DNA of 63,678 nucleotides, counting the filler, from Craspedostauros australis (taxonomy: Eukaryota): the NCBI GenBank assembly GCA_030167865.1. It is 11 parts of 11 records of this genome, joined end to end, with 100 filler letters (N's around TTAATTAATTAA, not from the genome) between each part and the next. Parts side by side here need not be neighbours in the genome. Positions count along the whole stretch, not along the records: positions 31,605 to 36,563 come from JALAGF010006153.1; 10 more parts are not named here. The stretch is one strand, 5' to 3'. Position numbers and translations under genes: made by a program. Below the pieces are notes generated by a model. The model was not told the DNA's origin. It did not search any database and was given only the letters and a program-made list of their open reading frames with translations. Positions within the stretch are counted from its first letter, which is position 1, and every line of letters begins with the position of its first letter. Shown here piece by piece: positions 13,886 to 55,469 of this stretch.

Positions 13886-13985
13886 NNNNNNNNNNNNNNN
13901 NNNNNNNNNNNNNNNNNNNNNNNNNNNNNTTAATTAATTAANNNNNNNNNNNNNNNNNNNNNNNNNNNNNNNNNNNNNNNNNNNN
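13886..13985. other. Artificial scaffold linker N44-TTAATTAATTAA-N44; the 12-mer also occurs at 18022, 31549, 36608, 45773, 48348, 52042, 55331, 57550 and 61883
   Basis: Identical 100-bp structure ten times; TTAATTAATTAA places stops in all six frames. Confidence 0.97.
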
Positions 13986-14444
13986 CGCTGACCATGGCCA
14001 TGACCAGGTCACACGGAAATCAATGACGGGCGTGGTTCTACTGATCAACAACACCATCGTCAAAACCATATGCAAACGACAGAACACAGTGGAGACATCA
14101 ACCTACGGATCCGAACTGGTAGCCGCCAGGATAGCTACCGAGGCGGTCACAGGTCTGCGCTACATGCTGAGAGATCTCGGAGTCCCCATCGACGGACCCG
14201 CAATCATGCTCGGAGACAACAAAGCNGTGGTACTCAATACTACGGTTCCATCCTCAACGCTGAAGAAGAAACACTGCTCATTGGCCTTTCACCAAATCCG
14301 GGAATGCATCGCCGCTGGAATCATCGTGTTCGCCCACATTGCGTCAGTCGACAACATCGCTGACATACTCACCAAGCCCCTTTCCAAAACACCATTCCAC
14401 CACATCACGTCGAGAACGATATTCCGGAACTCAATCCATGAGTC
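13986..14444 (+). CDS. Copia RNase H domain (end of pol, partial)
   Basis: ADHGHDQVTRKSMTG...KRQNTVETSTYGSELVA...GDNK...LKKKH...NIADILTKPL. Confidence 0.93.
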
Positions 14445-17698: not shown

Positions 17699-17712
17699 GA
17701 GATGAAGGGGAG
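17699..17712 (+). other. Polypurine tract
   Basis: GAGATGAAGGGGAG directly abuts the LTR start. Confidence 0.85.
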
Positions 17713-17977
17713 TAATAGAGCTAAACTAGTAGCCACCTTAGCGAGAGAGACTACGAATCATCCGATTCGTCAGCATTCCAGTAGATCGAATGAATACTTC
17801 GCCGGACCCCACGTTTGGAGACAGATCCAGAACCTTGAAGCGGATCTTCGGAATTCGTGTCAGGGAACCAATGAGGTTCCGATAACCAAGTTCCTGACAC
17901 CCACCATCGCCAAAACGCCGACGCACGGAACCAAAGCCACAACAACGAGCATCATCGCCCATTGTCTCTCACAGAAC
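17713..17977 (+). repeat. 3' LTR of copia family A (truncated by scaffold end)
   Basis: Aligns by eye with 29567.. and 39236.. Confidence 0.92.
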
Positions 17978-28900: not shown

Positions 28901-31504
28901 TACACTGCATGTGCAAGGGTACAAACCTGGAACTTGGGATGCAGGCCTGAGGAGTACTTCAGTGATCTGGCCATCACACCAAAGGTGCGGTTGAGTCCCT
29001 CAACCTTGCCATTCATCCAAGCGCATCTGGCCCCAGTGGGTTCGAGAGTGTATCCCGCAGACCGGACGACCTCCTGGAAGGCACTCGATCATGCAAGCTC
29101 GCCACCAGTGTCGACCCTCACCGCCTTGCAACCATCCTTGCAACCAAACTCATGAAGCAGGTTGGCAAATATGTCCACAGGTGGGGATCTGGTCTTGGTA
29201 GGGGAACCCCTAAGTGTACCAAGTGCACACATCAGTGACAAGAAAGTACAAGTGTACCCTTCAAGAGGCTGGACCACCTGTTCGACTTGGCAGAGTTGCG
29301 TGACGACGCCTGTCCGTACTGAAGATCGGACGACCACATGAAGCCGTAGTCAGCATGGAATCTTGCACCAGTGGAGGGAACAGGGCTGCCATCTTGAGGT
29401 CCTTGAGGATCTGTCTGACACTGGGCTTGGCTGCATGTAGCACAATGCCGCATTGGATGTGCACAGTGGNNAGGAGGCCTGGAATACCAGAACAGTGCAT
29501 ATGGAGCCACTTCATGTGCGACATACCAGCGCAGCCCAGGCACATATGCCAGAGCTCCGCGCTGAGTAATAGAGCTAAACTAGTAACCATCTTAGTGAGA
29601 GAGACTACGAATCATCCGACTCGTCAGTATTCCAGTAGGTCGAACGGACACTTCGCCGACCCCCACGTTTGGAGACAGATCCAGAACCTTGAAGCGGATC
29701 TTCGGAATTCGTGTCAGGGAACCAATGNNNNNNNNNNNNNNNNNNNNNNNNNNNNNNNNNNNNNNNNNNNNNNNNNNGACACTTCGCCGACCCCCACGTT
29801 TGGAGACAGATCCAGAACCTTGAAGCGGATCTTCGGAATTCGTGTCAGGGAACCAATGGGGCTCTGATAACCAAGTTTCTGACACCCACCATCGCCAAAA
29901 CGCTGACGCACGGAACCAAAGCCACAACAACGCGCATCATCGCCCATTGTCTCTCACAGAACTCAGACAACGGATCTCGACCCACGGTACTTGGGCTACA
30001 CAACCCACACGCATTGTCATACAGGACACCACAGGAGATCCCCCTCGAAGAGAAGAACCATAGCACTAATCTCATAATCCGCACGTTTCTTCACCATCTA
30101 CCAGTATTCTCAATTGACTACTTGTGGAACAGAAGACTCACATTCGGACCGCTTGCCAGTCAAGCCTCTACAGCCTACAGCTAAAGAACAGCCAACAAGA
30201 CAACAGCCATTACGTTTGGGCTCTATTACTGAGTGCAGGCAGTGCACGCTGGACAGCGAACGCAGTTAGCTTGACATCATCATTGGTACTGAAGAAGTAG
30301 AGTCTGTTGCAACGACGCGTGGGCGCATCAATGGAACACCTGTGGCCATGGAAGGAGAGAACATACCCTGATGGACCGTCATGGAGCACATAGCACACAA
30401 AGTCATTGTCCTGCTGGCGAACAATGGCCTGCAACAAGACAAATTCTCAGCCAGATCAGGGCAGAGCATTGTGTTGGCCTAAATCACTCCACTGCACAAG
30501 CTGGGAATGGTGAGAGTGCTTTCTCTCTGGCATACCATACAGGTCGCACTGGCATTAGCTGCAGCCAGTGGGACAACATTGGTGTACCACTGATAGTCTT
30601 GGAGGATAGACCAGTCAGGCGTAGCACTGACGTTTGCACAAGGATATCATTCCCCCACATTGTCTATAGGGTTTCATGCATGCACCGTACTTCCAGAAGA
30701 CGGAGCAAGTGAACAGCGCAAGTGTGGGCAACTACAAAGGTGGCCAGCTTTGACAGAGTGATCTCTGGAGGGACAGACTGTGTGAACGAGGGCACTTCAT
30801 CAAGCGAATGTACTGCCTGTGTCCTGCTAGCGCATGGTGATAAAATATGCCGTTCGTCAAGAATTGTGCCCGATCCTGACCAGCAGGCCAAAATCGTGTT
30901 TAAGGGCATCCTGAATCGCATCAGACAAGATGAGATCAGAGAAGTCGCCGTCACCATGGTTCCTGAAGTGCTGTAGAGCATGAGCAGTTGCCTTTGACCT
31001 GTTGCAACCAAAGTGGGTGCAATAGCTTTTGTGAATCTTGTTGGCCTCATCAGGATGCTCTTGCACAAAGTGCATGAGATGGATGGTGCGCCCAAAGGCT
31101 TTGCACATACATGCCTTGTATCCCATGTAGCAACATGCTTCGCAGAAGGCATCTAGATTGGGCTTGTAGAAGGTATTGTGCCGCCTGTGTGACCAACTGT
31201 TGTCCTGTCGGTCGCCTTGTCCGCCACAACTACTGTGGGTTTGAGTGCAGTGGGCCTTGAGTGAAACAGCACTGCCAGGGGGATCTACAATTCTTGGGCA
31301 AGATGCTCGGCATGCAGATTGAAAGGCAGTGCCTTGGGCGATGTCACAGTGCGCAGCATGGTGTGGTAATGCTCCAGCATGTACCCGTGCTCACGCAGAT
31401 CCTCGAGAGAGATAGGACTCAGGTTTGTCGAGATGTACATGTGAGTATATGTCAAGATGTACGTGTATATGTGCATCGTTCACCCGTTATTCTCTCATAC
31501 GCAC
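25959..31504 (-). mobile_element. Degenerate Ty1/copia family C (many stops and frameshifts), with a probable 141-bp 3' LTR at 25959-26099
   Basis: Fragments LWHMCLGC, VRVDTGGELA, NGKVEGLNRTFG, IFDEAHF, YMDADWGA, SLITSKAEF; G-tract then TGTTGGCATC at 26099 on the minus strand. Confidence 0.85.
29567..30228 (+). mobile_element. Solo LTR of family A nested in family C, 5-bp TSD CTGAG
   Basis: CTGAG at 29562-29566 and 30229-30233; ends TAATAGAGC...GCTCTATTA; ~530 bp after removing the 50-N gap and 81-bp overlap. Confidence 0.95.
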
Positions 31505-31604
31505 NNNNNNNNNNNNNNNNNNNNNNNNNNNNNNNNNNNNNNNNNNNNTTAATTAATTAANNNNNNNNNNNNNNNNNNNNNNNNNNNNNNNNNNNNNNNN
31601 NNNN

Positions 31605-32327
31605 GCAGCGTTCATCGTGGAAGCCCACGAACCCAACGGACACGATGCGTTCCAGGCACTCGTGCGAACATACGAGTCGCCCGAACACAAAGCTGAAGCC
31701 ATCGTCGAAGAAGAACAGAAGATCGCCGAGCTCCGTTACGACGGATCCGAGCCCTTCCCAGTATTCGTCAACGCTTTCTCCAAATGCATCCGCGTCATGG
31801 AGCAGAACGGGAAGCAAATGACAGACCAACAGAAGATCGCAAAGTTCTTCCGCAACATCACGGACGATCGCTTCACGAGCGAGATGTCCAGATTCCGTCA
31901 CACGGAACAGTCCTTTTCCGCCATCCGGGAGGCATTCATGCAACATGATGCGCTCCTCGCGAAGTCGGAAGGGCACTACTCTCCCAAGCGCAACCGTNGC
32001 TACCANCAGAAGGACACCAAGGACGACCGCAAGAGGCCACGCGAATCCTCCAAGTGGGATCGCAAGGGCGCCGCATCATTTCGGTTGCCGGACTCCGTCT
32101 TCCGTCGCATGCCGGCGAGCACTCAAGTGCTCCTCGTCGAAGCGTCTCGTCACTTCCGTACCACCGGGAAACCAATCGATGAAGACACACTCAAGCGCAA
32201 CAAGCCAACAGAGTATGCGCGCAACCTCGAGTTGCCACTGACCCAGCGAGGACCCAAGCGGCCTCGCACGGGCGACCACAAGACCGGACGACCCGGCACC
32301 CAAGGACCATGGAACGCCGGTTCTTGA
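31605..32327 (+). CDS. Gag (5'-partial), family D
   Basis: NGHDAFQALVRTYE...LRYDGSEPFPVFVNAF...KIAKFFRNI resembles copia capsid; ends at TGA 32325-32327. Confidence 0.8.
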   Translation, partial: AAFIVEAHEPNGHDAFQALVRTYESPEHKAEAIVEEEQKIAELRYDGSEPFPVFVNAFSKCIRVMEQNGKQMTDQQKIAKFFRNITDDRFTSEMSRFRHTEQSFSAIREAFMQHDALLAKSEGHYSPKRNRXYXQKDTKDDRKRPRESSKWDRKGAASFRLPDSVFRRMPASTQVLLVEASRHFRTTGKPIDEDTLKRNKPTEYARNLELPLTQRGPKRPRTGDHKTGRPGTQGPWNAGS

Positions 32328-35300
32328 CAATCAAAGACGGGCACAACTCGCCGTCAGTCGGAGATTGTCATCCACCTCAAACCCCGCGACTGTAGGGGGG
32401 CGAGCGTGACGACCGCAGCGGGAATGCCCGGACGTGCACGTCCGGTGGCACCACAAGAGTCCCGTCCGTGCACAACCCACCCGACAGTGGAGCACTGCAT
32501 CCGAAGGGCAAGAGTAACGAACAATAGCCAAGGCTTTATCATCCTAGACTCAGGGGCGGACGGAGACATCGTTCATGCGTCGGGCTGGGAGGTGACCCAC
32601 ACACACCAACAAGAGTTTCGTGCCCGAGGGGCGACAATCAGCTCACCAATCGAGACATTCCAGATGGTTGACGCGGTGGCAGCATACGAGCCCCCATCAG
32701 GCGGCGTGATCCTCATCAAAGCGAACTACGTGGCTCTCGACAAGCATCCACAGCAGACGGAATCACTGTTTAACACACATCATATGCGCGCGTCCGGACT
32801 GAACGTCTACGATCGCCTAATCGAACATCAGGGACAGCAGCGGGTCTCATCGGACGACATCAGCATAACACTGGAGAACCATGACGGCAACACGCTCCGA
32901 ATTCCCATCAGAAAGCCGACAGCCCACGAGATGGCAACGGCGCAGCATATCATCATATGCGACAGACATCAGCGTCTACGACGCAACGCAGGTCGGGTCG
33001 ATTTCACACGAATCTTCCGGCACCTTCCGCCACACGTGGTGGAGAAGACAATGGCGGCGTCCACTCAGCTGGCAGATACTCCGATCGAGGCAGAGTCAAG
33101 GCTCATCCCGCGGCAGTATCGAGCGCAGCGAGCAGGAGTGCTGCAACCCAACAGGATCGACGGCAGAGTTGACACGGACACGTTCTTCTCCACCGTCCAG
33201 TCCATCCGGCACTACAAATGCTTTCAGCTGTTCTCGCACCAACAATCGAAATTCATCTGGGCGAAGCCATTGGGCCGCGAGGCCATGGCACCAGGGGCGC
33301 TCACGGACTTCATCATAAGCATCGGCGCTCCGGACCTACTCGTATCAGACAATTCGCAGGTGCAGTCGGGCAAGGCATGGAAAGCGGTCACATCCCGCTA
33401 TTTGATCAAGCACCAGTTCACTGTGCCCATGAATCAGAACCAGAATCACGCAGAACGGGCGATCGGCAATGTCAAGCGGCATGCATACCAGCTTCTGTGG
33501 GCCGCCTCGGCGCCACTCTCATTCTGGTGCTACGCTGTGCAACACGCGATCGACACTTGGAACTACACGGCAAAGGCGAGCCTCCAGTGGCGTACGCCAA
33601 TCGAGATTCTTCGAGGCAACACTCCCGACATCTCGATGTTTCGCTTCACGTTCTTCCAGCCCATATGGTTCTTCGAGCCCATGACCAAATTTCCCAACCA
33701 TCCATTCAAACCAGGGTACTTCCTTGGCATCGCATGGAACCACGGTGATCCATTCACCTACACCATATGGTCACCGCGAGGCGATGACATCACGAAAGGC
33801 ACCGCGCTTGTGCGCAACATCGTCAAGCCGCGTGTCGTCGAAGACGCCATCCCTCCACGCATCACCGACGCGGAGGTCAACCGCATCGCTCGGCTCGATA
33901 TCATCCACACCACTACGCGCGGCGAATCCGGCGAACGCGCCAGGACCAAGACATTGCCGGCGGAACTCGCTCGACAGGTCCGTGAGGCCATCGACGCGAT
34001 TGCTGTGCAGTCAGGGGCGGCGGCAGGTCCACCGGCGACGGCGACGCAGGAGGTCAGGGGCGTATCCGAGAATAACACGCCAGCAGGCACGGATGACCGA
34101 TGGTTCGGTCAGCCAAACATAATTCCCAACGACGGCGACAGGCCGGAACATAATGCGCACGGCGTCATCTCCGATGACGACGGCGACGCATCCACGGGTA
34201 CCATCTCTGAGGAGACCGATGACTCCGAAGTCACGGCGATGCCAGATCCTCCGGAGCACCGCTCTCAGGGGCGTGAGTCCTCTCTCATNGAGAGAGAGCA
34301 TGACGAGCTGTTCCGAAATCAGGTCGAAAACGAGAAATCTGACGACTTGGCAATCAACTCCATCCTCAGCCACGCATTCAGAGACGGACATCTACACTTC
34401 AATGTGCAATGGTCCAATACTGAAACGCAATGGTTCCGATATGACGTGATCCGAGCAGACCATCCCGAAATGGTAGCACGATACATCATTGACAACGAAC
34501 CACGACGCAACGGTCGACACAATCGACAATCGCAAGTCCTACTCAAGTGGGCGAAACATGCACTGCGAGCCATCAGGCGCAGAATCCGAAGAATCGAGCG
34601 AACTCGAGTCTTCACCATGGATGACGATGACAACATCATCATCATCAGACGAATCCGTCCAGGCAAGAAGAAGCCGAAACGAGACTACTTCGCCACTGTG
34701 TATCAATACGGTGTCGAGGTCCCACGCAACATGAAACATGCATTGCAACTGGATGAGGCCAACGGGGATCACCAATGGAGAGACGCAGCGAAGAAAGAAA
34801 TCGACGCATTGATCGAACTCGACTGCTTCACATTCCACCCATCAACATACCAACCACCAGCAGACTACCAGAGCACGAAACTCCGACTCATATTCGCGGT
34901 CAAGCAAGACCTGCGACGTAAGGGGCGCTTGGTAGCAGGCGGGCATCTCATCGAGCTGGCGGACAACATCCGAGTCTACTCTTCCACTGTCAAGTCGACA
35001 AGCGTCCGCATTCTCGATGCAATAGCAGATGCAAACAACCTGCAACAGCTATGTGGCGACGTCGGCAATGCATTCGTCAATGCATACACCAATGAGAAGA
35101 TCTATGCGACAGCAGGAAAGGCATTCGACGACAAAGAAGGACAAGTCATTGTGCTCAAGAAGGCACTGTACGGTCTTCGGTCGAGCGCTCAACGATTCCA
35201 TGCACACTTCGCTAATACTCTCTCATCAATGGGATTCACGCCATCACGGCATGATCAGGATGTATGGATCCAGCGCAGAGACGACTCTGGCTACGACTAC

Positions 35301-36563
35301 ATCTGTACCCACGTGGACGACTTCAAGATAGTCGCCAAAGACCCAGANCAGTACATGAAAGCGATCCAACAAGTCTACACAGTCAAAGANATCGGACCGC
35401 CGAANTACTATCTTGGCAACGATTATTCCAGGAACGCAAAAGGAAAATGGAGCGTCGGATGCGACAAATACATTTCCAATGCNCTGGACAAGATCGAACG
35501 GCTCCATGGGGAACTGCATGACCAACATGTGCCCATGAAGAGCAAGGATCATCCGGAAACGGATGATACACCACTACTAACACCTGACGAGCAACAACAG
35601 TTCCAGCAGCTCATCGGCATGCTGAACTGGGTTGTACAGCTCGGACGTTTCNNNNNNNNNNNNNNNNNNNNNNNNNNNNNNNNNNNNNNNNNNNNNNNNN
35701 NATGGATCCAGCGCAGAGACGACTCTGGCTACGACTACATCTGTACCCACGTGGACGACTTCAAGATAGTCGCCAAAGACCCAGACCAGTACATGAAAGC
35801 GATCCAACAAGTCTACACAGTCAAAGACATCGGACCGCCGAAGTACTATCTTGGCAACGATTATTCCAGGAACGCAAAAGGAAAATGGAGCGTCGGATGC
35901 GACAAATACATTTCCAATGCNNNNNNNNNNNNNNNNNNNNNNNNNNNNNNNNNNNNNNNNNNNNNNNNNNNNNNNNNNNNNNNNNNNNNNNNNNNNNNNN
36001 NNNNNNNNNNNNNNNNNNNNNNNNNNNNNNNNNNNCAGTTCCAGCAGCTCATCGGCATGCTGAACTGGGTTGTACAGCTCGGACGTTTCGACGTCGCATT
36101 TGCCACCTCTTCTCTCTCACGTTTCACATCGACACCGCGAAAAGGGCATCTCACGAGAGCACTTAAGATATGGGGATACCTCAAGAACAAATCCACGCTG
36201 AGAACCATGATCGACTCAAAACCTATCGCGTTCGAGAACTTCAATCCAGAATCGCCCAACCCGGAGATGGTTGCACAGATGAAGGAAGAGTACCCCGAAG
36301 CGGCTGAGGACATTGACGATCAGGCACCNNNNNNNNNNNNNNNNNNNNNNNNNNNNNNNNNNNNNNNNNNNNNNNNNNNNNNNNNNNNNNNNNNNNNNNN
36401 NNNNNNNNNNNNNNNNNNNNNNNNNNNNCTGGGGCGCACCCCAGTGCACTTCTCCAGCAAACGCCAGACATCAGTCGCAACATCAACATACGGAGCAGAA
36501 TTCAATGCAATGCGCTCGGCAACCGAGGAAATCATTGCACTCCGATACGCACTCCGATCTCTG
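32328..36563 (+). CDS. Pol, family D, in frame with gag after the TGA
   Basis: IILDSGADG, VDTDTFFS, LVSDNS, QNHAERAIG, YGVEVPRN, RKGRLVAGGH, GDVGNAF, ALYGLRSS, THVDD, SKRQTSVATSTYGAEF. Confidence 0.93.
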
Positions 36564-36837
36564 NNNNNNNNNNNNNNNNNNNNNNNNNNNNNNNNNNNNN
36601 NNNNNNNTTAATTAATTAANNNNNNNNNNNNNNNNNNNNNNNNNNNNNNNNNNNNNNNNNNNNCAACTGATGACAGAGACCCAGGTGTTTTGTAGTGGGA
36701 GAATGAAGAGTGGTGGTATTGATGGTGAGTACAGCCACATGTCCATGGTGGAGCTGTACAAGGTTATGGATCAGGATGAGGGTACAGCACAAGTGGATTC
36801 ATACATGGATCGGGCAACATTGGTGGACTTCGTCCGC

Positions 36838-38114: not shown

Positions 38115-39235
38115 ATCATCGTTGGCATCATCACAGTCTCTTGCCATCACCGCCTTCGTTGATTCTGGTTGGCATGCCATATTTTGCGCAGCCGCTGCTT
38201 GCTTGATTACTTCATTGCTTCATTGCTTTGCTGCTTGACGGACAACGTCTCAGTGTTGGCTGATACCTCCATCAATGCAAACATAGTCAAGCCATTTCAT
38301 CTCTCTTGCTCTCTCTTTCTCGCTCTCTCGTTGTGTTGAAGTCGCTTGATGGATCATGGGTGCAAAATCGAAGATTCGTTGTTTTGGGTGGTGTCAAGAA
38401 TTGTTGGCGCGTTTGTTGAGTACTCGTCTGTCTGCCATCCGTAGTTCATTCAACCAATGACACGCACGTGCACTCACAACGAACATCACCTCTGTGTTGT
38501 CTTCATTCGACGCAACTCTGTTCGACGATGACGATGGCGACCCCTCCAACGGCGCCGCATCCCTTCACAATTGGTACCACCGACGCAAACGCAAACACAA
38601 ACAATCAGACAAGATGACAAAGCATCGACATCCAAGAGGAACTGTGGGAAGGCTCGCCAGTTGCTCCGCATCTTGACCCACCCGTTGTACAACTATGAGT
38701 CTGGAACCTCCCATGAGTATGATCTACTCTGGGAGTTGCCACAACAAAGCGTCCAGCCTGATAGGTACTCTGTTCGAACCTTCATGAGGTCATGGCCATC
38801 GAAGTTGATGTTGATGGAAGAGGAGGGTGTCAGACTGATAGCAGAGAAGCAAACGGAGACCAAGCAATCGCATCAGGCCGACACGAAATTGAAGGCGAGC
38901 AAGCCCACAAGCGTCGCCAATGAGGCCAAAGCAGCTGCAAAATCAGGTCGTCGTGCGAGTGTCAGCACAGATACACCAAGCAGTGCCAATAGAAGCACAG
39001 CAAAAGATGCGAAAGCTTCAGCTGTGAAACAATCACATGCGAAGAGTCTGGACATGCTCAACATGCAAGCTCATGACATGCAAGCTCATGAGATGTCATT
39101 CAGCTCCCTTGATCCCAGCAAGTTCATCAACAACGAACTGATGCCTGTGCCAAACACCCCAGGTGGACTCAGCTTCGCCACAGCCCCAGCACTTGGCACA
39201 ACCGGCGAATGGAGCAGCCAAGACAAGACGAAGCT

Positions 39236-39762
39236 TAATAGAGCTAAACTAGTACCCACCTTAGAGAGAGAGACTACAAATCATCCGACTTGTCAGCATT
39301 CCAGTAGATCGAACAGATACTTCACCAGCCCCCACGTTTGGGGACAGACCCAGAACATTGAAGCAGATCTTTGGAACCCGTGTCAAGGAACCAGAAGAGT
39401 TCCGATAACCAAGCTACTGACACCCACCATCGCCAAAACGCCGACACATGGAAACAGAGCCCCAGCAACGCGCATCATCGCCCATTGTCTCTCATGGAAC
39501 TCAGCCAATGGATCTCGACCCACGGTACTTGGGATACATGACCCATACACACTGTCATTCAGGACACCACAGGAGATCCTCCCCGCAGGGAAGAACCATA
39601 GCACTAATCTCATAATCCGCACGTTTCTTCACCATCTACCAGTATTCTCAATTGACTACTTGTGGAACAGAAGACTCACGTTCGGACCGCTTGCCAATCA
39701 AGCCTCTGCCCAAAGCTATCAACAGCCAACAAGACAACAGCCATTACGTTTGGGATCTATTA
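39236..39762 (+). repeat. 5' LTR of family A (527 bp)
   Basis: TAATAGAGC...GATCTATTA; boundaries match the TSD-defined solo LTR. Confidence 0.93.
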
Positions 39763-39775
39763 GATTAACAGTCAC
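39763..39775 (+). other. Putative primer-binding site complementary to the tRNA-Asn(GUU) anticodon arm
   Basis: GATTAACAGTCAC, reverse complement GTGACTGTTAATC, directly after the LTR. Confidence 0.7.
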
Positions 39776-39807
39776 AAAAGATTGTCAAGCTCTTAGACCC
39801 CTGCAAG

Positions 39808-42183
39808 ATGACCGTCACCCAACGCCTCCAAGCCTCCAACCGGCCACCTCCCAAGAGGAGCCCAGGAGATAGGACCCTAGCCTTCGAGACCCTTCCCGCG
39901 GACCCAAAGGACCCAAGCCTCTCTGCCATCCTTGATGGCACGCCAGGCTACCCAACAACCGGGCCATCTTCGCTCTCCTTCACAGAGATCGGAGTCGACT
40001 TCATCGAGGTCACCTTCCGACACCCCATCATCGTGGATGCATGGAATCGAAAGGAAAGAACCAACGAAGCCGAAATCGTGCGCCACGTCCACAAGACTAC
40101 CTGGAACGCGTTCACGGAACTCAAGCAAGAGTTTCGGATCAGCATCGAAACCGCCATGATCTTTGATCTCTTCCCATCCAAGACCCTCGCAGAAGAGAAG
40201 ACCATCTCCCAACTGCTGATCACCATCCATGAAGAAGCCACCGACATGAACCCGGCATTAATCATGTTCAACCTCAAGCACCCGGACGACGTGGCAAGGA
40301 ACTACGAGACAGGACTCCTCATCTACCACATCGGAGAATGGGTCAGATCCATCAAAGTTGAGGATGAATCCACTCTCGAATCCACCCTTGACGCAATGTT
40401 CACCGACACGGACACCACCGCCAAAGCCATGGCAGACTTCTGCCGTTCCGAACGATGCGGCAAACGCCACCACAACCAAGCTTGGTTGAATGTCATCGGG
40501 GAACACAAGAAGGCACTCTCCAACGCATCCGCGACCAGCGTCTCATCTGGGTCAGAAGCATCTACCCGTAGAACCGGACGCGACAACGACAGCCACCAAG
40601 GAGGAACCCCATCTGGGCTCTCCCTCATGCTCGGTGGGAACACCCCGCACCGTACCCCACCCGACTTCCCGAACGAAACCCAACTCTCCAGCATCGCCAA
40701 GCAAGGATCACAAAACACGTCACCAGCAATCATCGACACCCGTGGTACCACCCCGCCCAACGAAGATACCGAACCAGGCACCAACTACGACCAACACCAT
40801 GATAACGACGATACCGTAGACGTACCCGACAACCGCGGTCCCACAGGACGGAACCGACTTTTCCCCAACGTAGACCCAGCAACGATCGGTGACTTCGACC
40901 GCAACCCAACCGTCGCCAAGGTAGTAACCTTCGCCCCCGAAACAACCGCAAGAGGTCCAGGAGGTACCAACGCACCCCGGATGAACTACCCAGAGAATGA
41001 CGGGAACCGTCCACCCCACGATCGAAACCTGCATCCCTACCACGGTGCCGCGGATACACCGGCCTCACATGGTGTGGGTAACTATCGAGGCAACAACGGG
41101 CACGAACCCGTGAACCGAAACCCTGTCAGTAACCCACCCGCGAACCATGGGACAAACCGCCCGCACCGTGACAACCATGGGCCTCCAATTAACCATGGAC
41201 ACAACGGCGGCGACCCTTATGGGCATCCCCCTAACTTGGGGAACCAATTCCCTCATGGCCCACCGCTTCCGATGTACCACAGAACCCACCCAGGAGGATT
41301 CCCGCCCATTGGAATCCCTATCCCCATGGGCCATTTTCCCCATGGAACCGGAGGTTTTCCAATGCCACAAGGAGCCTTCACCCCCGTTGGACACCCTCAC
41401 CCCGGGTATCCACCACGACCACCCGCGTATGGGTACCGCCCAACCGATCCCAATGGAGGTTTCGGAAGACATGACCCACGCAACATGGGCCCGAACACCC
41501 CACACGGGCAACACGAACCCGGGTATGCACCCCATCGAGGATCCACCCGCAGCGAACCACCAGTCGCCCAGGCCAAGCTAACGAAGCGACGCCCCATCCC
41601 TGACTCCGTCAAATTCACGAGTGACGCGGCATCCTTCCAAGTGGTGAAACACCAAATCCATGCTCATCTCCTTGGAAACGACATGGCGTACCTGATCAAC
41701 GATCAGTTCCGGCACCGATACCATTCCCAAGGAATCCATGCGATCAAGGACCACATCGACCCGGTGACAGGAGTGCCAACAACCACCTCGCCAGAACAGG
41801 TCGCAAGCGACGTCAGGACCCTATTCGCGGGACTATACTCCGTCTTCGCCGGCGGCCCAGCACATGGACTCGCCACCAGAGGACTCCTCACCGAGGACGG
41901 TATCCTATTCTGGAATGAACTCCTCAATACCTACGATAGCGACTGGATCAGAGGAATGGAGGTCGACTCTCTGATGAAGAGAGTGCATGATTTCAATCCC
42001 GGCAGACAGGACCTGGGATCCTACCTGAAGGAGATCCAGGATATATTCGCGAACGTGAATTTCCTGGCAACCAACCCGGATCAACAAGTCTCCGACGCGC
42101 AACAACGCCGCACGCTCCTTAACCACCTCATCGGTTGCGACGACATCAACGTACGCACCATGGTCCGGAGCATCGAGCGAAGC
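39808..42183 (+). CDS. Gag of family A, unusually long with a Pro/Gly/His/Asn-rich middle (runs into gap)
   Basis: ATG 45 bp after the LTR; C-terminal DGILFWNELLNTYD...YLKEIQDIF capsid-like segment. Confidence 0.8.
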
Positions 42184-42318
42184 NNNNNNNNNNNNNNNNN
42201 NNNNNNNNNNNNNNNNNNNNNNNNNNNNNNNNNNNNNNNNNNNNNNNNNNNNNNNNNNNNNNNNNNNNNNNNNNNNNNNNNNNNNNNNNNNNNNNNNNNN
42301 NNNNNNNNNNNNNNNNNN

Positions 42319-45300
42319 TGAATCCAACACCGAGATGGTCATCAATGCCATCTCGAAGAAACTACAGGAAGATCCCACCTTCATCTCACAAGAAGTATTC
42401 GATGGACTACCCGAGAAGGTCCGTCGAGTGATCATGAAACTCCGCAGCTCCCTCCGTTGGGCCCGCCGCAACAATGACCGGAACGGATCCGGATTCACCC
42501 GCGTCGAGGGCAAGAAGGAGCAGGAAGAACCCCAACCACCTGCCAGCGTGAAGCCCCCAGAGAAAGGGGAGGAAACCAAGCCACACAAGCAGTATGGAGG
42601 TGTCACCCACGCGAACCTGGCCAGGTACACCCCAGGATCCACCGAGGGAACCGATTCCCAGGACGAGAATGGCTCGGATCTATCCTCGATTGACGCTTCG
42701 GAGCTTGCCAAGTTCCTGGTCGATTATGGAGGATACGAGGAGAACGGCAACGACCGGCTCGTGAAGATGATCACGATGAGTGATTCATCTGGCACCACAA
42801 GCCCCGTCGACCCGCCCGAATCCAAACAACGCCAATCAGTGCCCGAACAGCTGATCAACCTGGCGACCTTCTCTCCGCAAACATACGCGGTATGCGACGG
42901 TGGCGCACAATGCTGCGTTATCGGGAACAAGGACCGGGTCTGGAAGATTGACTACATCTACCCGCATCGGACGTACAACATCGTCGGTGCCGTGGCCAGC
43001 ACGATGAGGAAGAACAACCTCGCGGTGGTAGACGCAAGTATCAAGGCCAGAACCAGGGAAGGCAACGAAGTGATCCTCCGGATCTACGAAGCCGCCCTGA
43101 ACGCTGACAGCCGGGTAACGCTGCTCTCCGACCACCAAATTCGGGCCAGTGGAACCGTCCTCGATACGGTCTCATCGGAACACCGAGCATCGTTCTCGAC
43201 ACCAGGCACAGGAAGACAATGCCTGATGCCTGACGAGGACACAACGATCAACTTGGAGATGCGGGACGCGCTGATGACGTTCGACGTTTTCCCCATCATG
43301 GAGGACGATGAGGATCTGCCCACCCACGACATCACCCCAAAGCAAGGATGGAACCCTTCGGATCACCAAGGAGGACACGTATGCAACGTGCCCATGGGTT
43401 GCTACCTTACCAGGGACCCGAACGGAGGAGAGAAGGCAGTTGACTGGGATGGCCGACCTGATGCACCGCATGACGCTGGAACGATGGATCCAAGCGCCCG
43501 CAACGCATCGATGGATCCCATGGAACCCGGGACAAGCCAGGCCACGGTCGGCATCCCGGATAATCCCATAGAAGGACGAGAACCCATGGACCCCAACGCC
43601 CGTCATCCAGACGAGCACGCCACAGAAGGTCTCAACCATGTCAACCAGGAGTACCCCAAGGTGGACGCATTCCTTGACACTCTAAGTCTCGAGGAGCTCA
43701 TTGGAATGTCACATGCAATTGACACGGTAACGTTCGCGAAATCGGCCACCGACACAGCCATCTCGATCCAAGACACCCTCTTCGACCTGGTAGACAATCT
43801 CTCTGCTGGAGACATCGACCACTTATACAGGGAACTGGGCATTGATCGCAAGGCCAACGCGGTAGGAACGGACAAGAAAGGATACACCGAGTCAACCAAC
43901 GTACCACCGACAAAGGTACCAGACCTGGATGACGAGGCAGACAGCGCCATCTCATCCTTACACTCGGTAGGATCCGAACCGGCGTTCCAAAGAAATCGGG
44001 AGACATTTCGCATCCCCAACGAGATCGGCGTGACCAAGGCAACACGCGCTGACACCCTCCGGGGAGACCCGCGAAGCGCACCTGGATACCACGGGCACAC
44101 CAAAAGCGAGAACCCCGTCGGGATTGATGATCCGGGAAAGGACAATCCCATGGACACCATGGACCGACACCCTGCGGAAGCTATGACCGAGTACAGCCAC
44201 CAAGGGTTCCCGTTCCGAGCTAAATGGAAGTCCATCGATCTTCACAAGATCCAACCGTACCTCGGGTACCTACCCACGCACGTGATCAAACAAACCCTTG
44301 CCAGAACCACACAACTCATGCGGGCAGTGATCACTTACCCTATGCGAAGGCACAAGAAGTCCAGATTCGAGTGGATGCGACGACAGCGAATCCGGGAGAT
44401 CGTGGCGACGGACACCATATTCTCCAACGTCAAGTCTTTTGGAGACGGATACTCCATGGCACAAATCTTCNNNNNNNNNNNNNNNNNNNNNNNNNNNNNN
44501 NNNNNNNNNNNNNNNNNNNNNNNNNNNNNNNNNNNNNNNNNNNNNNNNNNNNNNNNNNNNNNNNNNNNNNNNNNNNNNNNNNNNNNNNNNNNNNNNNNNN
44601 NNNNNNNNNNNNNNNNNNNNNNNNNNNNNNNNNNNNNNNNNNGGAGAGAAGGTCCTCAAGCTTCTTAGGGACCTCCACATCAAATCAAGGCTGACAGAAC
44701 CGCACAACCAGCAACAGAACCCGGCCAAGCACAACGCCATCCTGTACATGAAGTGATGTGTCACAACACTCATTGACCGGACAGGGGCACCGCCAAAAGC
44801 ATGGTACCACGCTTTCCGATACATGTGCTACGTGCACAACCATACATCAGACCCGTCCCTACGATACGCAATCCCACACACCGTACGACACGGAGAAACC
44901 GTCGACATCTCTGCGCTCTTGACCTTCCAATTCTACGAGAAGATCTTGTACCATGACCCCAACGCTACCTTCCCGAACTCGAAGGAGAAATCAGGATACT
45001 GGCTCGGCATGGCAGAGTCCCATGGGGACTTCCTCACATACCACGTGCTGGACGATGAATCCCGACGAGGACTGGTACGGAGCGTGGTCCGCCCCTTCCG
45101 GAAGGGTATAAACAACAACAGGCGTGTCACCTTCGACCAAGACATGGACCCCGAGGCAGATAACCCCAGCACACGGACCCCGCTGGAACTGTCCGGTACC
45201 CCACAAGGATGGAAGACCAAGACCCCACCGAAAAGAGGGTATGCGGCGACGGCCAAGACGACACACCCGCGGGCATGGGAGAACAAGACCGACAAGATGA

Positions 45301-51581: not shown

Positions 51582-52097
51582 NNNNNNNNNNNNNNNNNNN
51601 NNNNNNNNNNNNNNNNNNNNNNNNNNNNNNGTCCCACTTAGTAGTAACAAATAGCCCAACTTTAGCAAGCACAAAAGGTTCATCCCACATGCCCCCCTTG
51701 CCTGTTTGAGTGAGTGTTGTTAGGGTGTCCTGATTACGGGGTAGTAATTTTAGTGCTTTGTTTTGCTGTTGGAGGTTTGAAGGACTACCTTGTTGTGGTT
51801 GCATGTGGGACGCACTGAATAGCCAGTCCAGGAGGACGGAGACGAGGAGACACCAACGCTTGCCCAAGAGAGTCCCGGTTTACATCATGGACAAACGAAG
51901 GGCAACATCAGCCAGGCATCTTGGCCACCCAACCACAACGACGTTGAGCGGAGGGACGGGTTTGTGGTCGCCACCACTGCCCACAACGGTAGCGATGNNN
52001 NNNNNNNNNNNNNNNNNNNNNNNNNNNNNNNNNNNNNNNNNTTAATTAATTAANNNNNNNNNNNNNNNNNNNNNNNNNNNNNNNNNNNNNNNNNNNN

Positions 52098-55000
52098 TTT
52101 TCCAACATCAATGACAAACAATTCTTGAGTGAGATTTCTTGGCTTCACAACGTCAATCAGTCATTTGACTGGATCCGCAATGAGTTGATGAGGCACGACA
52201 GCTCCATCGCCAACTCCAAGATCGAACAATCCCCACAGTGCAACCGGCGCTAACAGCAGAAGAAGGACAGGCAAACCAACTGTAAGCGTCGCTACGAGGC
52301 GCCAACAGTGGACCAAAGGCCCTTGGCAATGTCCCTGCTGATGGACAGCGTCTTCTGCCGGCTTCCGACCCACATGCAGGTGCTCGTCGTGAAGTCTGCG
52401 CTTTACTTCCGCAAACACGGCNAGCCAATCAACGAGGACACGCCCAAGAACCTCAAACNAGCGGAGTACGCAAAGAACCTCCAACTTCCCACCATGTGAA
52501 GATCTCACAAGAGAGCCTGGACCAAAGTGTCCCCAGCGTGCAGTGGAAAGGAATACGGACCATGCGACAACAGTTCGTGACAATCAATGACAGACACAAC
52601 TCGCCGCCAGTCGGAGATCATCATACATATCAAGCCCCACGACTGTAGGGGAGACGCGCGCAGCTGCGGAGAGAAGATCCAGGTGTGCACGCCTGGAGGT
52701 ACTACAAGAGTTGGCGCCAAGTGGAACCCACCCGACTGTCAACCACTTTCTTTGCAGGGCAAGAGCAACAAGCAGTAGCCAAGGCTACATCGTTTGACTC
52801 AGGGGTGGACAGCGACATTGTACATGAATCCGGATGGGTGGTGACCCAACAACACCAACAGACGTTCCATGCTCACGGGGCAACAATGGCCTCACCAATC
52901 AAGGCATTCCAGATGGTCGACGCGGTGTCAGTATATGAATCTCCAACAGGCGATGTGATCCTCATCAAGGCAAAATATGTGGCTCTGGATAAGCACCCAC
53001 ATCAGATGGAATCATTGTTTAATACACATCACATGCGCGTGCCTGGACTGAATGTATACAATCACCTCATCCAACACCAGGGGCAACAGCGCATTGCATC
53101 AGGTGACACCAGCATCCCACGGGCCAACCATGGTGGCAACACCCTGCGNNNNNNNNNNNNNNNNNNNNNNNNNNNNNNNNNNNNNNNNNNNNNNNNNNAC
53201 GGACCATGCGACAACAGCTCGTGACAATCAATGACAGACACAACTCGCCGCCAGTCGGAGATCATCATACATATCAAGCCCCACGACTGTAGGGGGAGAC
53301 GCGCGCAGCTGCGGAGAGAAGACCCAGGTGTGCACGCCTGGAGGTACTACAAGAGTTGGCGCCAAGTGGAACCCACCCGACTGTCGACCACTTTCTTTGC
53401 AGGGCAAGAGCAACAAGCAGTAGCCAAGGCTACATCGTTTGACTCANGGGTGGACAGCGACATTGTACATGAATCCNGATGGGTGGTNACCCAACAACNC
53501 CAACAGACGTTCCATGCTCACGGGGCAACAATGGCCTCACCAATCAAGGCATTCCAGATGGTNGACGCGGTGNCAGTATATGAATCTCCAACAGGCGATG
53601 TGATCCTCATCAAGGCAAAATATGTGGCTCTGGATAAGCACCCACATCAGATGGAATCATTGTTTAATACACATCACATGCGCGTGCCTGGACTGAATGC
53701 ATACAATCACCTCATCCAACACCAGGGGCAACAGCGCATTGCATCAGGTGACACCAACATCCCACGGGCCAACCATGGTGGCAACACCCTGCGCATCCCC
53801 ATTTGGAAATTCACAGCTCATGAGCTAAAACTCAATAATCATGTCACGATATGCAACTGACACCAGCGCCTTCGGCGGAATAACCAGGGAATCCATTTCA
53901 CCGACATGATCAAACACTTCCCACACCAGGTTGTTGAGAAGACAATGGCGGCATCCACCCAACTGGCGGACAGACCAATCGAGGCAGAGTCACGACTCAT
54001 CCCATGGCAGTACCGAACACAATGAGCTGGAGTGCTCCAGCCGCAATGAATCCAAGGCAGAGTCAATACGGACCCCTTCTTTTCCACAGTGCAATCAATT
54101 TGGCATTCCAAGTGCTTCCAACTCTTTGTCCACAGCAAACCAAAATTCATCTGGGCAAAGCCGCTCCAAAGAGAGGCAATGGCGCCAGGGGCACTCATGG
54201 ACTTCATCCTCAATGTCGACGCACCGGATACCCTTGTGTCCAACAACTTGCAGGTCCAATCAGGAAAGGCCCTGGAANNNNNNNNNNNNNNNNNNNNNNN
54301 NNNNNNNNNNNNNNNNNNNNNNNNNNNATGGACTTCATCCTCAATGTCGACGCACCGGATACCCTTGTGTCCAACAACTTGCAGGTCCAATCAGGAAAGG
54401 CCCTGGAAAGCGACCACATCCAAGCACATGATCAAGCACTACTTCACTACGCCCATGAACCAGAACCAGAACAGAGCGGAACGCATGATCGGCGACATCA
54501 AGTGGCATGCTTATCAGTTGATATGGGCGGCATCCGCGCCACTCGAATTCTGATGTTTTGCATTGCAGCATGCCATCGATGTGTGGGACTATATGGACAA
54601 GGGCAGCATCCAGTGGAGGACACCAATTGAACTTTTCCATAGCAACATGCCCGACATTTCCATGTTCCAATCCACTTTCTTCCGTCCTGTGTTGTTCTTC
54701 GGGCCAATGACAAAGTTCCCTGAGCATCCATTCAAACTGGGCTATATCCTGGGCATCGCGTGAATTCACAGGGATCCATTCACTTACCATATCTGGTTGC
54801 CACAAGACGAGGATATCAAGTGGGGCACAGTCCTCATGCGCAACATCGCCAAGCCGCATATTCTGGAATACGCAGACACTCCGCACATCAGCAATGGAGA
54901 CATACAACGAATTGCAAGGCTCAACCTCATTGACGCAACCACAAACAGCGCTTCGGGTGGCAGGGCATGAGCAAAGACAATACCGGCTGAGCCCGCTCGA

Positions 55001-55286
55001 CAGGTCCAATAGGCCATCGATGCGATTGCCGTGTGGCCAAGAGCGGCGGCTCGCATCCCGGAACCTGGTCCAACGAGGGTCAGGAAAATCGAGGTCAACG
55101 CAAACACAGCTTCACTAGAGGACCAATGGTTTGGACAGCCAAATGTTGTGCCTCATGACGAAGACACGAGCGGAAATGACACTGCAGATGTGATCTTGGA
55201 CGGTGATGACAATGGTGACAGCCAAATACCTGGCGACGTCTCTGAGTAGCTCGATAATTTGGCGGCAGTACCCATGCTAGATCCTT
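52098..55286 (+). mobile_element. Degenerate copy of copia family D (gag end, protease, integrase)
   Basis: Collinear with ~31850-34250 (VILIKAKYVALDKHPHQMESLFNTHHMR, KFIWAKPLQREAMAPGAL); many stops and frameshifts. Confidence 0.92.
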
Positions 55287-55469
55287 NNNNNNNNNNNNNN
55301 NNNNNNNNNNNNNNNNNNNNNNNNNNNNNNTTAATTAATTAANNNNNNNNNNNNNNNNNNNNNNNNNNNNNNNNNNNNNNNNNNNNGATGACCAGGCACA
55401 AGCGATTTTCTCCCTTCCCGCTCTTTCCCATCATCGCCTCTCCATCATCACTACATTGGTGCTCCTTGA

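Follow-up and report, generated by a model that had tools for sequence, protein, structure and literature searches.

Retroelements need far more Gag than Pol, and copia elements mostly achieve this via a single open reading frame (ORF), via splicing, or via frameshifting. A gag-pol arrangement with an in-frame stop codon is established for murine leukemia virus (MLV) and for Tca2, and SIRE1 has an in-frame stop at the pol/env boundary, according to the literature passages available. Tca2 of Candida albicans belongs to the Ty1/copia elements, and its gag and pol lie in one frame with a single UGA between them. The same organization was found for copia family D of Craspedostauros australis, which is represented in a stretch of 63,678 nucleotides (nt), filler included, of the assembly GCA_030167865.1; this whole stretch is called the window. 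In the passage describing Tca2, an 8-nt spacer and then a candidate structure follow the stop. Family D differs from Tca2 in that a match to the hexamer CARYYA stands right after the stop, that no pseudoknot is supported, and that the sequence is unrelated beyond the copia fold. A first-pass annotation of the window had called gag-pol readthrough rare among copia elements, which agrees with the literature passages, but in-frame stops between gag and pol as such are well known in retroelements. Family D is a new lineage with a known retroelement strategy, and as a copia lineage with an in-frame UGA it adds to the few known cases (Tca2).

Further described systems share single features with family D. 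In the Ty3/gypsy elements Tj1, Tosmo1-3 and Tcry1 of fission yeast the in-frame Gag-Pol TGA is retained across diverged elements within a conserved GAA-TGA-CT, and the stop of Tj1 is reported to be essential for transposition (passage citing Guo 2015; both statements are taken from excerpts). Family D belongs to a different superfamily and has TCT-TGA-CAA, whereas L011, one of the metagenomic relatives treated below, has GAA-TGA-CTG, like the fission-yeast elements. The type I (tobamovirus) readthrough signal is UAG-CAR-YYA, and the CAAUCA of family D fits the six post-stop bases. The natural cases of this type are, in the source excerpt, generally UAG codons in plant RNA viruses, whereas family D has a UGA in a retrotransposon and its signal is a predicted one. 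Type II signals are described in the excerpt as UGA-CGG/CUA with an extended stem-loop about 8 nt downstream, and MLV has a gag-UAG-pol pseudoknot. Family D has the UGA of type II, but its next codon is CAA instead of CGG or CUA, and it has no significant downstream structure; the type II layout was found in L011 and in the clade of L012, with an extended stem 6-9 nt past the UGA. The CoDi copia elements of diatoms (Maumus et al. 2009) are, like family D, copia elements of marine protists, and they were compared by description only. A full-text search for literature on readthrough in diatom copia elements gave nothing relevant.

The gag and pol of family D are separated by one in-frame UGA, and programmed readthrough is the best explanation for its bypass, with a probability of roughly 0.65. 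The intact copy is a gapped scaffold of 4,959 nt (31605-36563), in which the N-terminus of gag and the C-terminus of pol are absent. It has the following features:

31605..32324, + strand: gag, C-terminal 240 codons, an open frame that ends at the TGA and aligns with the gag part of fused relatives
32325..32327, + strand: in-frame UGA stop at the gag/pol boundary, the sole stop in 1,653 codons, also present in the diverged copy
32328..32333, + strand: hexamer CAA TCA matching CARYYA, identical in the diverged copy
32328..32402, + strand: first 25 post-stop codons (QSKTGTTRRQSEIVIHLKPRDCRGA), conserved in frame 0, with an RR-plus-hydrophobic-strand motif
32328..36563, + strand: pol, i.e., protease (PR), integrase (IN), reverse transcriptase (RT) and RNase H, interrupted by scaffold gaps and cut at the contig end
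32538..32567, + strand: protease active-site motif IILDSGADGD, which aligns with the D(S/T)G motif of the relatives
34857..35498, + strand: copia-type reverse transcriptase (Pfam RVT_2, E 5.5e-20, 72.4 bits, cut-off 31.6)

The junction reads TCT TGA CAA TCA. The stop-to-stop ORF that ends with the TGA has 256 codons (31557..32327), and the following ORF in the same frame has 1427 codons (32328..36611). Within 31605-36563 the frame contains one TGA and neither TAA nor TAG (97 of the 1,653 codons contain N), in agreement with the first-pass annotation, which had gag ending at this TGA and the frame then running without a stop into pol. Translation across the junction gives GPWNAGS*QSKTGTTRRQSEIVIHLKPRDCRG and continues to the protease motif, with the DSG at 32547 and the catalytic D 73 codons after the stop. 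An exhaustive HMMER search, in which 2,076 proteins were matched, revealed an integrase-homologous block at about residues 470-750 of the query, which is ahead of the RT. As the DSG protease motif lies earlier still, the order is gag-PR-IN-RT, i.e., that of copia, and together with the RVT_2 match this confirms the assignment to copia that had been made before. The Pfam search gave no match for gag, PR, IN, or a chromodomain-like stretch between IN and RT.

A second copy of family D, which is diverged and dead, forms a contig of its own (52098-55286). Its features are:

52098..52577, + strand: C-terminal part of gag, 45% amino-acid identity to the intact gag, with in-frame stops
52578..52586, + strand: TGA CAATCA, matching the intact junction
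53222..53230, + strand: TGA CAATCA, near-identical repeat of the 52578 locus after a 50-N gap
53231..55285, + strand: pol (PR-IN), 8 in-frame stops in 568 aligned codons

The DNA identity of the two copies is 70-75%, and 354 of the 568 residues of the PR-IN part are identical (62%). The retention of TGA-CAATCA in the decayed copy, with an assembly duplicate, was thus as first annotated. The stretches around the two sites differ by only 5 substitutions and 1 indel in 593 nt (compared with 52557-53148) and, therefore, count as a single observation and not as two. Six of the eight stops of the diverged copy are TGA, its observed/expected ratio (o/e) is 0.70 for CpG and 1.47 for TpG, and C>T and G>A changes are in excess. 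In the intact contig the CpG o/e is 1.15, and 34 CGA and 24 TGG codons are unharmed. The CpG depletion and TpG enrichment of the dead copy are consistent with a methylation-driven decay of silenced copies. A side observation concerns the region 53300-53440, where two short deletions, of 1 nt and of 2 nt and separated by about 135 nt, distinguish the diverged copy from the intact one; the frame of the diverged copy is open from the TGA to the protease motif, but the stretch between the deletions is off the conserved frame (THPTV.H..RAR).

The comparison of the two copies gives the age of the arrangement. For PR-IN (554 codons) the proportion of synonymous differences (pS) is 0.64 (dS 1.44) and that of non-synonymous differences (pN) is 0.21 (dN 0.25), and for the C-terminus of gag (159 codons) the values are 0.72 and 0.38. 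Because pS is much higher than pN, most of the divergence arose under selection at the protein level, when both lineages were active. The TGA is common to these two lineages that diverged under purifying selection, and, thus, TGA-bearing elements remained functional over a long period. In the intact contig a CGA>TGA change by chance is unlikely, since this contig has no CpG decay and its CGA codons are unharmed, and such a change together with an independent one at the same codon of the other lineage would be improbable, as judged from the sequences. The gag-UGA-pol arrangement is, on this comparison, very probably functional and ancestral.

The 25 codons after the stop have a pS of 0.40 and a pN of 0.12 between the copies, with 7 synonymous and 7 non-synonymous differences. 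Of 109 pol windows, 7% have a pS as low and 15% a pN as low. The conservation in frame 0 spans the stop, with the pattern GP(W/C)(N/D)..S*QS.T.TTRRQSEI.IH.KP.DCRG, and the flanking residues are GPWNAGS*QSKTGTTRRQSEIVIHLKPRDCRG in the intact and GPCDNSS*QSMTDTTRRQSEIIIHIKPHDCRG in the diverged copy. The first in-frame AUG of the intact copy follows 33 codons past the stop (the M of AAGMPGR), and it is unconserved in the diverged copy. As both flanks of the stop are conserved and a conserved AUG is missing, ribosomes appear to translate frame 0 directly past the stop. The conservation of amino acids together with synonymous changes across the stop makes a programmed bypass, most simply readthrough, the best reading.

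From the arrangement, its age, and the coding constraint on either side of the stop we infer readthrough, and likewise the source of its leakiness. The TGA at 32325-32327 would be the ancestral, tolerated gag/pol boundary of a Ty1/copia-type element. Most ribosomes would stop at the UGA and produce Gag, while a minority would decode it by a near-cognate tRNA and continue in frame into protease, integrase, RT and RNase H to produce Gag-Pol, so that the readthrough frequency would set the Gag:Gag-Pol ratio. The leakiness might stem from the UGA, the following C and the CAAUCA hexamer, possibly aided by a downstream RNA structure.

The hexamer CAATCA (32328-32333) lies directly 3' of the stop and fits CAR-YYA, and CARYYA stimulates readthrough of UGA too, according to a review passage citing Skuzeski 1991. 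CARYYA makes up 0.23% of the hexamer positions in the window (1 in 431); its occurrence after this one stop is unlikely to be due to chance, about 1 in 400, a value to be read with the choice of the motif after the fact in mind. TGACARYYA is not enriched in the window (6 observed vs 5.4 expected). Because both copies have the hexamer by descent, it counts as a single observation. Of the first-pass proposal, programmed UGA readthrough was retained as the best explanation, but not CAATCA as an established signal, as this rests on one observation by descent and none of the nine related junctions described below carries CARYYA. A role of the CAAUCA hexamer as readthrough stimulator is, judged from its sequence, conceivable, but rather doubtful.

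Relatives of family D were searched for in several collections. None of them contained a close relative, and the best database proteins were unnamed metagenome ORFs with at most 38% identity. A word-indexed protein search with gag to IN, and with gag plus the junction, gave no match; protein patterns and a DNA pattern detected no relative among viral contigs, and the DNA pattern gave no match among genome contigs. Distant relatives such as P0005, P0001, P0007 and P0028 are single gag-pol ORFs, and the continuous ORF of the fused relatives includes the RR motif and hydrophobic strand that correspond to TTRRQSEIVIHL. When metagenomes were scanned with family D aligned to its top hits, 73 loci were obtained, and their junctions were classified by script:

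10 of 73 loci: one in-frame stop, always TGA, preceded by a long ORF in the same frame
12 of 73 loci: fused junction, with at least 200 stop-free codons upstream of the equivalent point
51 of 73 loci: junction decayed or beyond the contig end

In L008, one of the ten, the TGA (322-324) takes the place of an Arg codon of the near-identical fused sister L005, and L008 carries further stops. It was rejected as a gag-TGA-pol junction, being a plain nonsense mutation in a decayed copy, which leaves nine relatives; the pair L008 and L005 is a useful negative control for in-frame-stop calls. The nine relatives, with a single in-frame stop that is always TGA between a long gag ORF and pol, support the readthrough reading. 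L009 is intact, with 505 codons, the TGA, and then 1,393 codons ending in TAG. L012, L015, L017, L021, L024, L026 and L027 form one clade (98% in the Shimodaira-Hasegawa-like approximate likelihood ratio test, SH-aLRT). The TGA is at the same place in all seven informative members, after RR.GIL.F, and in six of the seven (not in L027) it stands a few codons ahead of a Ser/Gly-rich stretch, which contains SGS in L012, L015, L017 and L026. Several copies of this clade have later premature stops of mixed type. These sequences suggest that the in-frame UGA strategy may be common across a group of uncultured protist elements.

For a quick tree, 25 of the 73 loci were dropped as short matches or near-duplicates (L007, 13, 19, 20, 25, 29, 30, 32, 36, 40, 41, 42, 44, 50, 53, 57, 58, 60, 66, 67, and 69-73), which left 48 loci, and 2 rows from the window were added to them. 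Family D forms a deep branch in this tree and is sister (95%) to a group of 34 rows, which includes L009, L011, the TGA clade, and a fused clade of 15. At least three changes of junction type are needed on the tree. Another related metagenomic family was seen in two forms: one has a fused gag-pol ORF (P0158, 1731 aa), and the other has gag (P0157/P0162, 434 aa) and pol (P0003/P0167, 1297 aa) apart. Between the two forms the frame changes at a Lys-rich stretch (GRKKGGKK vs GRKREARN), near the place of the stop in family D; a homopolymer error, genuine variation, or a slippage site could account for this change.

A strong long-range stem was found in seven of the nine TGA relatives, at the following positions:

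L012:1850-1975
L015:1752-1877
L017:1336-1430
L021:399-520
L024:602-715
L026:188-310
L011:1705-1880

The partner of the post-stop sequence is formed by the codons of the protease active-site motif (IMDTAADQ), and in L011 it lies just after the motif. The 45 nt from the stop onward paired best at the protease codons, and in each of the seven relatives none of the 384-505 other windows of the next 1.7 kb was as good. When the 3' arm was shuffled (300 times), 2, 0, 0, 0, 0 and 0 shuffles were as good for the six clade members; for L011 the number was 220 of 300, with a window that missed the L011 arm. The paired 5' arm begins 6-9 nt past the UGA in at least L012, L015, L024, L026 and L011. In a MAFFT alignment of six sequences 80.6% of the cells pair, compared with at most 42% when the partner was slid, and 7 of the 12 stem pairs change on both sides, which was reached by none of 500 shuffles. 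The fold z-scores were -3.0 for L012 and -3.1 for L015. The stop-protease pairing was without signal in L027 (59 of 468 windows as good) and in L009 (75 of 509). According to these pairing models, the stem of the relatives probably acts as a stimulator of readthrough that is formed by coding sequence. This covarying stop-protease stem is a clean, testable candidate for a recoding signal and the more interesting by-product of the analysis.

Downstream of the stop of family D itself, the following structures were considered:

32336..32355, + strand: local hairpin GACGG 32336-32340 / CCGTC 32351-32355, intact copy only, 8 nt after the stop
32355..32398, + strand: complementary blocks CAGTCG 32355-32360 / CGACTG 32387-32392 and CCCC 32382-32385 / GGGG 32395-32398, both copies
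32339..32452, + strand: candidate branched RNA domain, two-copy consensus fold (RNAalifold), 26 pairs, -30.55 kcal/mol
32428..32445, + strand: 18-nt perfect palindrome CCGGACGTGCACGTCCGG, 7-bp hairpin CCGGACG-UGCA-CGUCCGG, diverged counterpart at 53325-53342

Two of the five pairs of the GACGG/CCGTC hairpin are broken in the diverged copy (GACAG / CCGCC), and the complementary blocks are identical in both copies, both as already described in the first-pass annotation. Since the blocks are invariant, they give no information on pairing and allow no covariation test. A pseudoknot formed from them was considered and rejected, all its bases being invariant. For an H-type pseudoknot, it is doubtful that a loop of 2 nt could span a stem of 6 bp. 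In the branched domain 5 of the 26 pairs are compensatory and none is broken; 14 of 83 pol control windows also have at least 5 compensatory pairs, none of them reaches the energy, and with two sequences only such counts come cheaply. An extended local hairpin of the intact copy (32339-32429) was rejected, as by eye it is not retained in the diverged copy. RNAalifold also proposed that the segment after the stop pairs over a long distance with the protease codons; this pairing was likewise rejected, because it stood out too little from other windows (see below). The 7-bp hairpin at 32428-32445, 100 nt past the stop, is retained in the diverged copy via 2 compensatory pairs and 1 G-U, and it is modelled as the best candidate for a local structure in family D. 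Its palindrome sits where the protein sequence is unconserved.

Several points weigh against programmed readthrough of the family D stop. There are only two independent copies of the family, one of them dead, and the conservation of the stop among diverged functional relatives holds for two lineages only, as the other TGA relatives have it at a different codon position. In family D the stop is 7 codons before the RR motif, in the relatives 4-10 codons after it, in an alignment made by MAFFT and by eye that is not decisive; because of this offset, the relatives support the strategy and not the homology of the site in family D. The intact scaffold, which is incomplete and gapped, may represent a collapsed consensus. 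CARYYA is present in none of the nine related gag-TGA-pol junctions, the codons 3' of the stop being CTC, AAT, AAT, AAA, AAT, CTC, CCT, GGA and CTG. The energy of the branched domain was matched by 42 of 500 column shuffles, which is not significant for these two sequences, and, thus, the covariation folding that the first-pass annotation had named as a check did not support a structure. Single-sequence folds of family D were unremarkable (z-scores -0.79, -0.11, -0.88 and +0.19), and in the intact copy 75 of 495 other windows paired with the post-stop segment as well as, or better than, the protease region did. Lastly, the sequence flanking the UGA of Tca2 directed no readthrough in S. cerevisiae and contained a minor internal promoter, and the bypass was called non-canonical, according to excerpts of that work.

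The last point leads to the explanation that the UGA is ancestral, but that Pol is made via an internal promoter, via internal or non-AUG initiation, or via another non-canonical bypass, as proposed for Tca2. This is unlikely for family D, because frame 0 is constrained as coding sequence in the 25 codons that directly follow the stop, a conserved AUG is missing between the UGA and this constrained block, the conservation on the gag side reaches the stop, and stems of the readthrough type adjoin the UGA in the relatives. A further explanation accepts the readthrough of a functional UGA, but regards CAAUCA as incidental and derives the leakiness from UGA-C, from a basal UGA readthrough of the host, or from a downstream structure. 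It opposes the specific signal and not readthrough, and it overlaps with the preferred reading. The lack of CARYYA in all nine related junctions, seven of which have the long-range stem 6-9 nt past the stop instead, speaks for it, as does the inheritance of the hexamer as a single observation by both copies; in addition, the lack of a synonymous change in the two codons CAA TCA is not unusual at such a divergence. The rarity of a chance CARYYA match, expected at only about 1 in 400 positions, and the non-significant structure of family D speak against it, and an incidental hexamer is a possibility of rather low probability, although clearly a better one than a non-canonical origin of Pol.

That the TGA is a functionless, inactivating nonsense mutation, either independent in both copies or acquired once in a dead ancestor, is quite improbable. 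CGA>TGA mutations do occur in this group of elements, as seen for L008 and its fused sister L005, and the diverged copy has 8 other stops, of which 6 are TGA. The frame of the intact copy, however, has no other stop, its 34 CGA codons are unharmed, and its CpG o/e is 1.15. The stop is common to lineages at a dS of about 1.4 and a dN/dS of about 0.17, a pattern that dead copies cannot accumulate, and it stands exactly at the gag/protease boundary. Least probable of all, and hardly to be expected, is a removal of the stop by splicing or editing, or a decoding of UGA as selenocysteine or as a sense codon in the host. Drosophila copia regulates gag/pol by splicing, as stated in the background passage of a paper, but in family D conserved residues abut the stop on both sides, and an intron across the stop would delete constrained codons. 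UGA occurs once in 1,653 codons and, therefore, is not a general sense codon in family D.

A broader scenario, which we hold only tentatively, is that gag-UGA-pol readthrough is old and has been rebuilt repeatedly across a large copia clade of aquatic and environmental metagenomes, each lineage having its own stimulator. In the L012 clade and L011 this would be the stem that connects the sequence 6-9 nt past the UGA with the protease active-site codons, so that coding sequence would serve as recoding signal, and in family D it would be the CARYYA hexamer. If this were true, family D would be the first retrotransposon with a tobamovirus-type CARYYA signal after its UGA. Whether the plant-virus hexamer works in another eukaryotic supergroup could be tested with family D. 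For annotation, one in-frame stop should not be sufficient to score such elements as dead.

The remaining observations concern the window as a whole. It is a chain of short contigs, contains 56 N runs in total, and has a recurring joint:

31505..31604, no strand: contig linker, N44 + TTAATTAATTAA + N44, a six-frame stop spacer, bordering the family D scaffold on its 5' side
13886-13985, 36564-36663, 51998-52097, 55287-55386, and others: further linkers of identical make-up in the window

As the contigs are joined by linkers, neighbouring elements in the window are not neighbours in the genome. The single-locus setting that had been assumed at first could thus not be kept, the intact and the decayed copy being on separate contigs. 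No long terminal repeats (LTRs) were found in the family D scaffold, the ends of which fall inside gag and inside pol, and a comparison of the flanking pieces revealed no shared repeat. Repeats of 87-88% identity at 29567-30228 and 39236-39762 were rejected as family D LTRs, because they are on other contigs and inside ORFs. The segments 29567-30228, 39236-39762 and 17710-17977, with 87-96% identity, are on different contigs and inside ORFs, and they are pieces of another repeat family. The intact scaffold contains an assembly duplication (35264-35483 vs 35702-35921, 99%).

Single in-frame stops were also noted elsewhere in the window (1612, 9349, 23314, and 27078), and no tie to copia elements was made for them. 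The short contig 13987-14421 encodes an RNase H / C-terminal pol fragment that is 41-44% identical to the relatives P0158 and P0028, and its stretch 14044-14172 is 51% identical to family D; from its sequence, it may be the missing 3' end of some related element. The long + strand ORFs 38532-39872 and 39769-42321 lie in different frames, share an overlap of about 100 nt, and are a candidate gag/pol frameshift junction of another element in the window.

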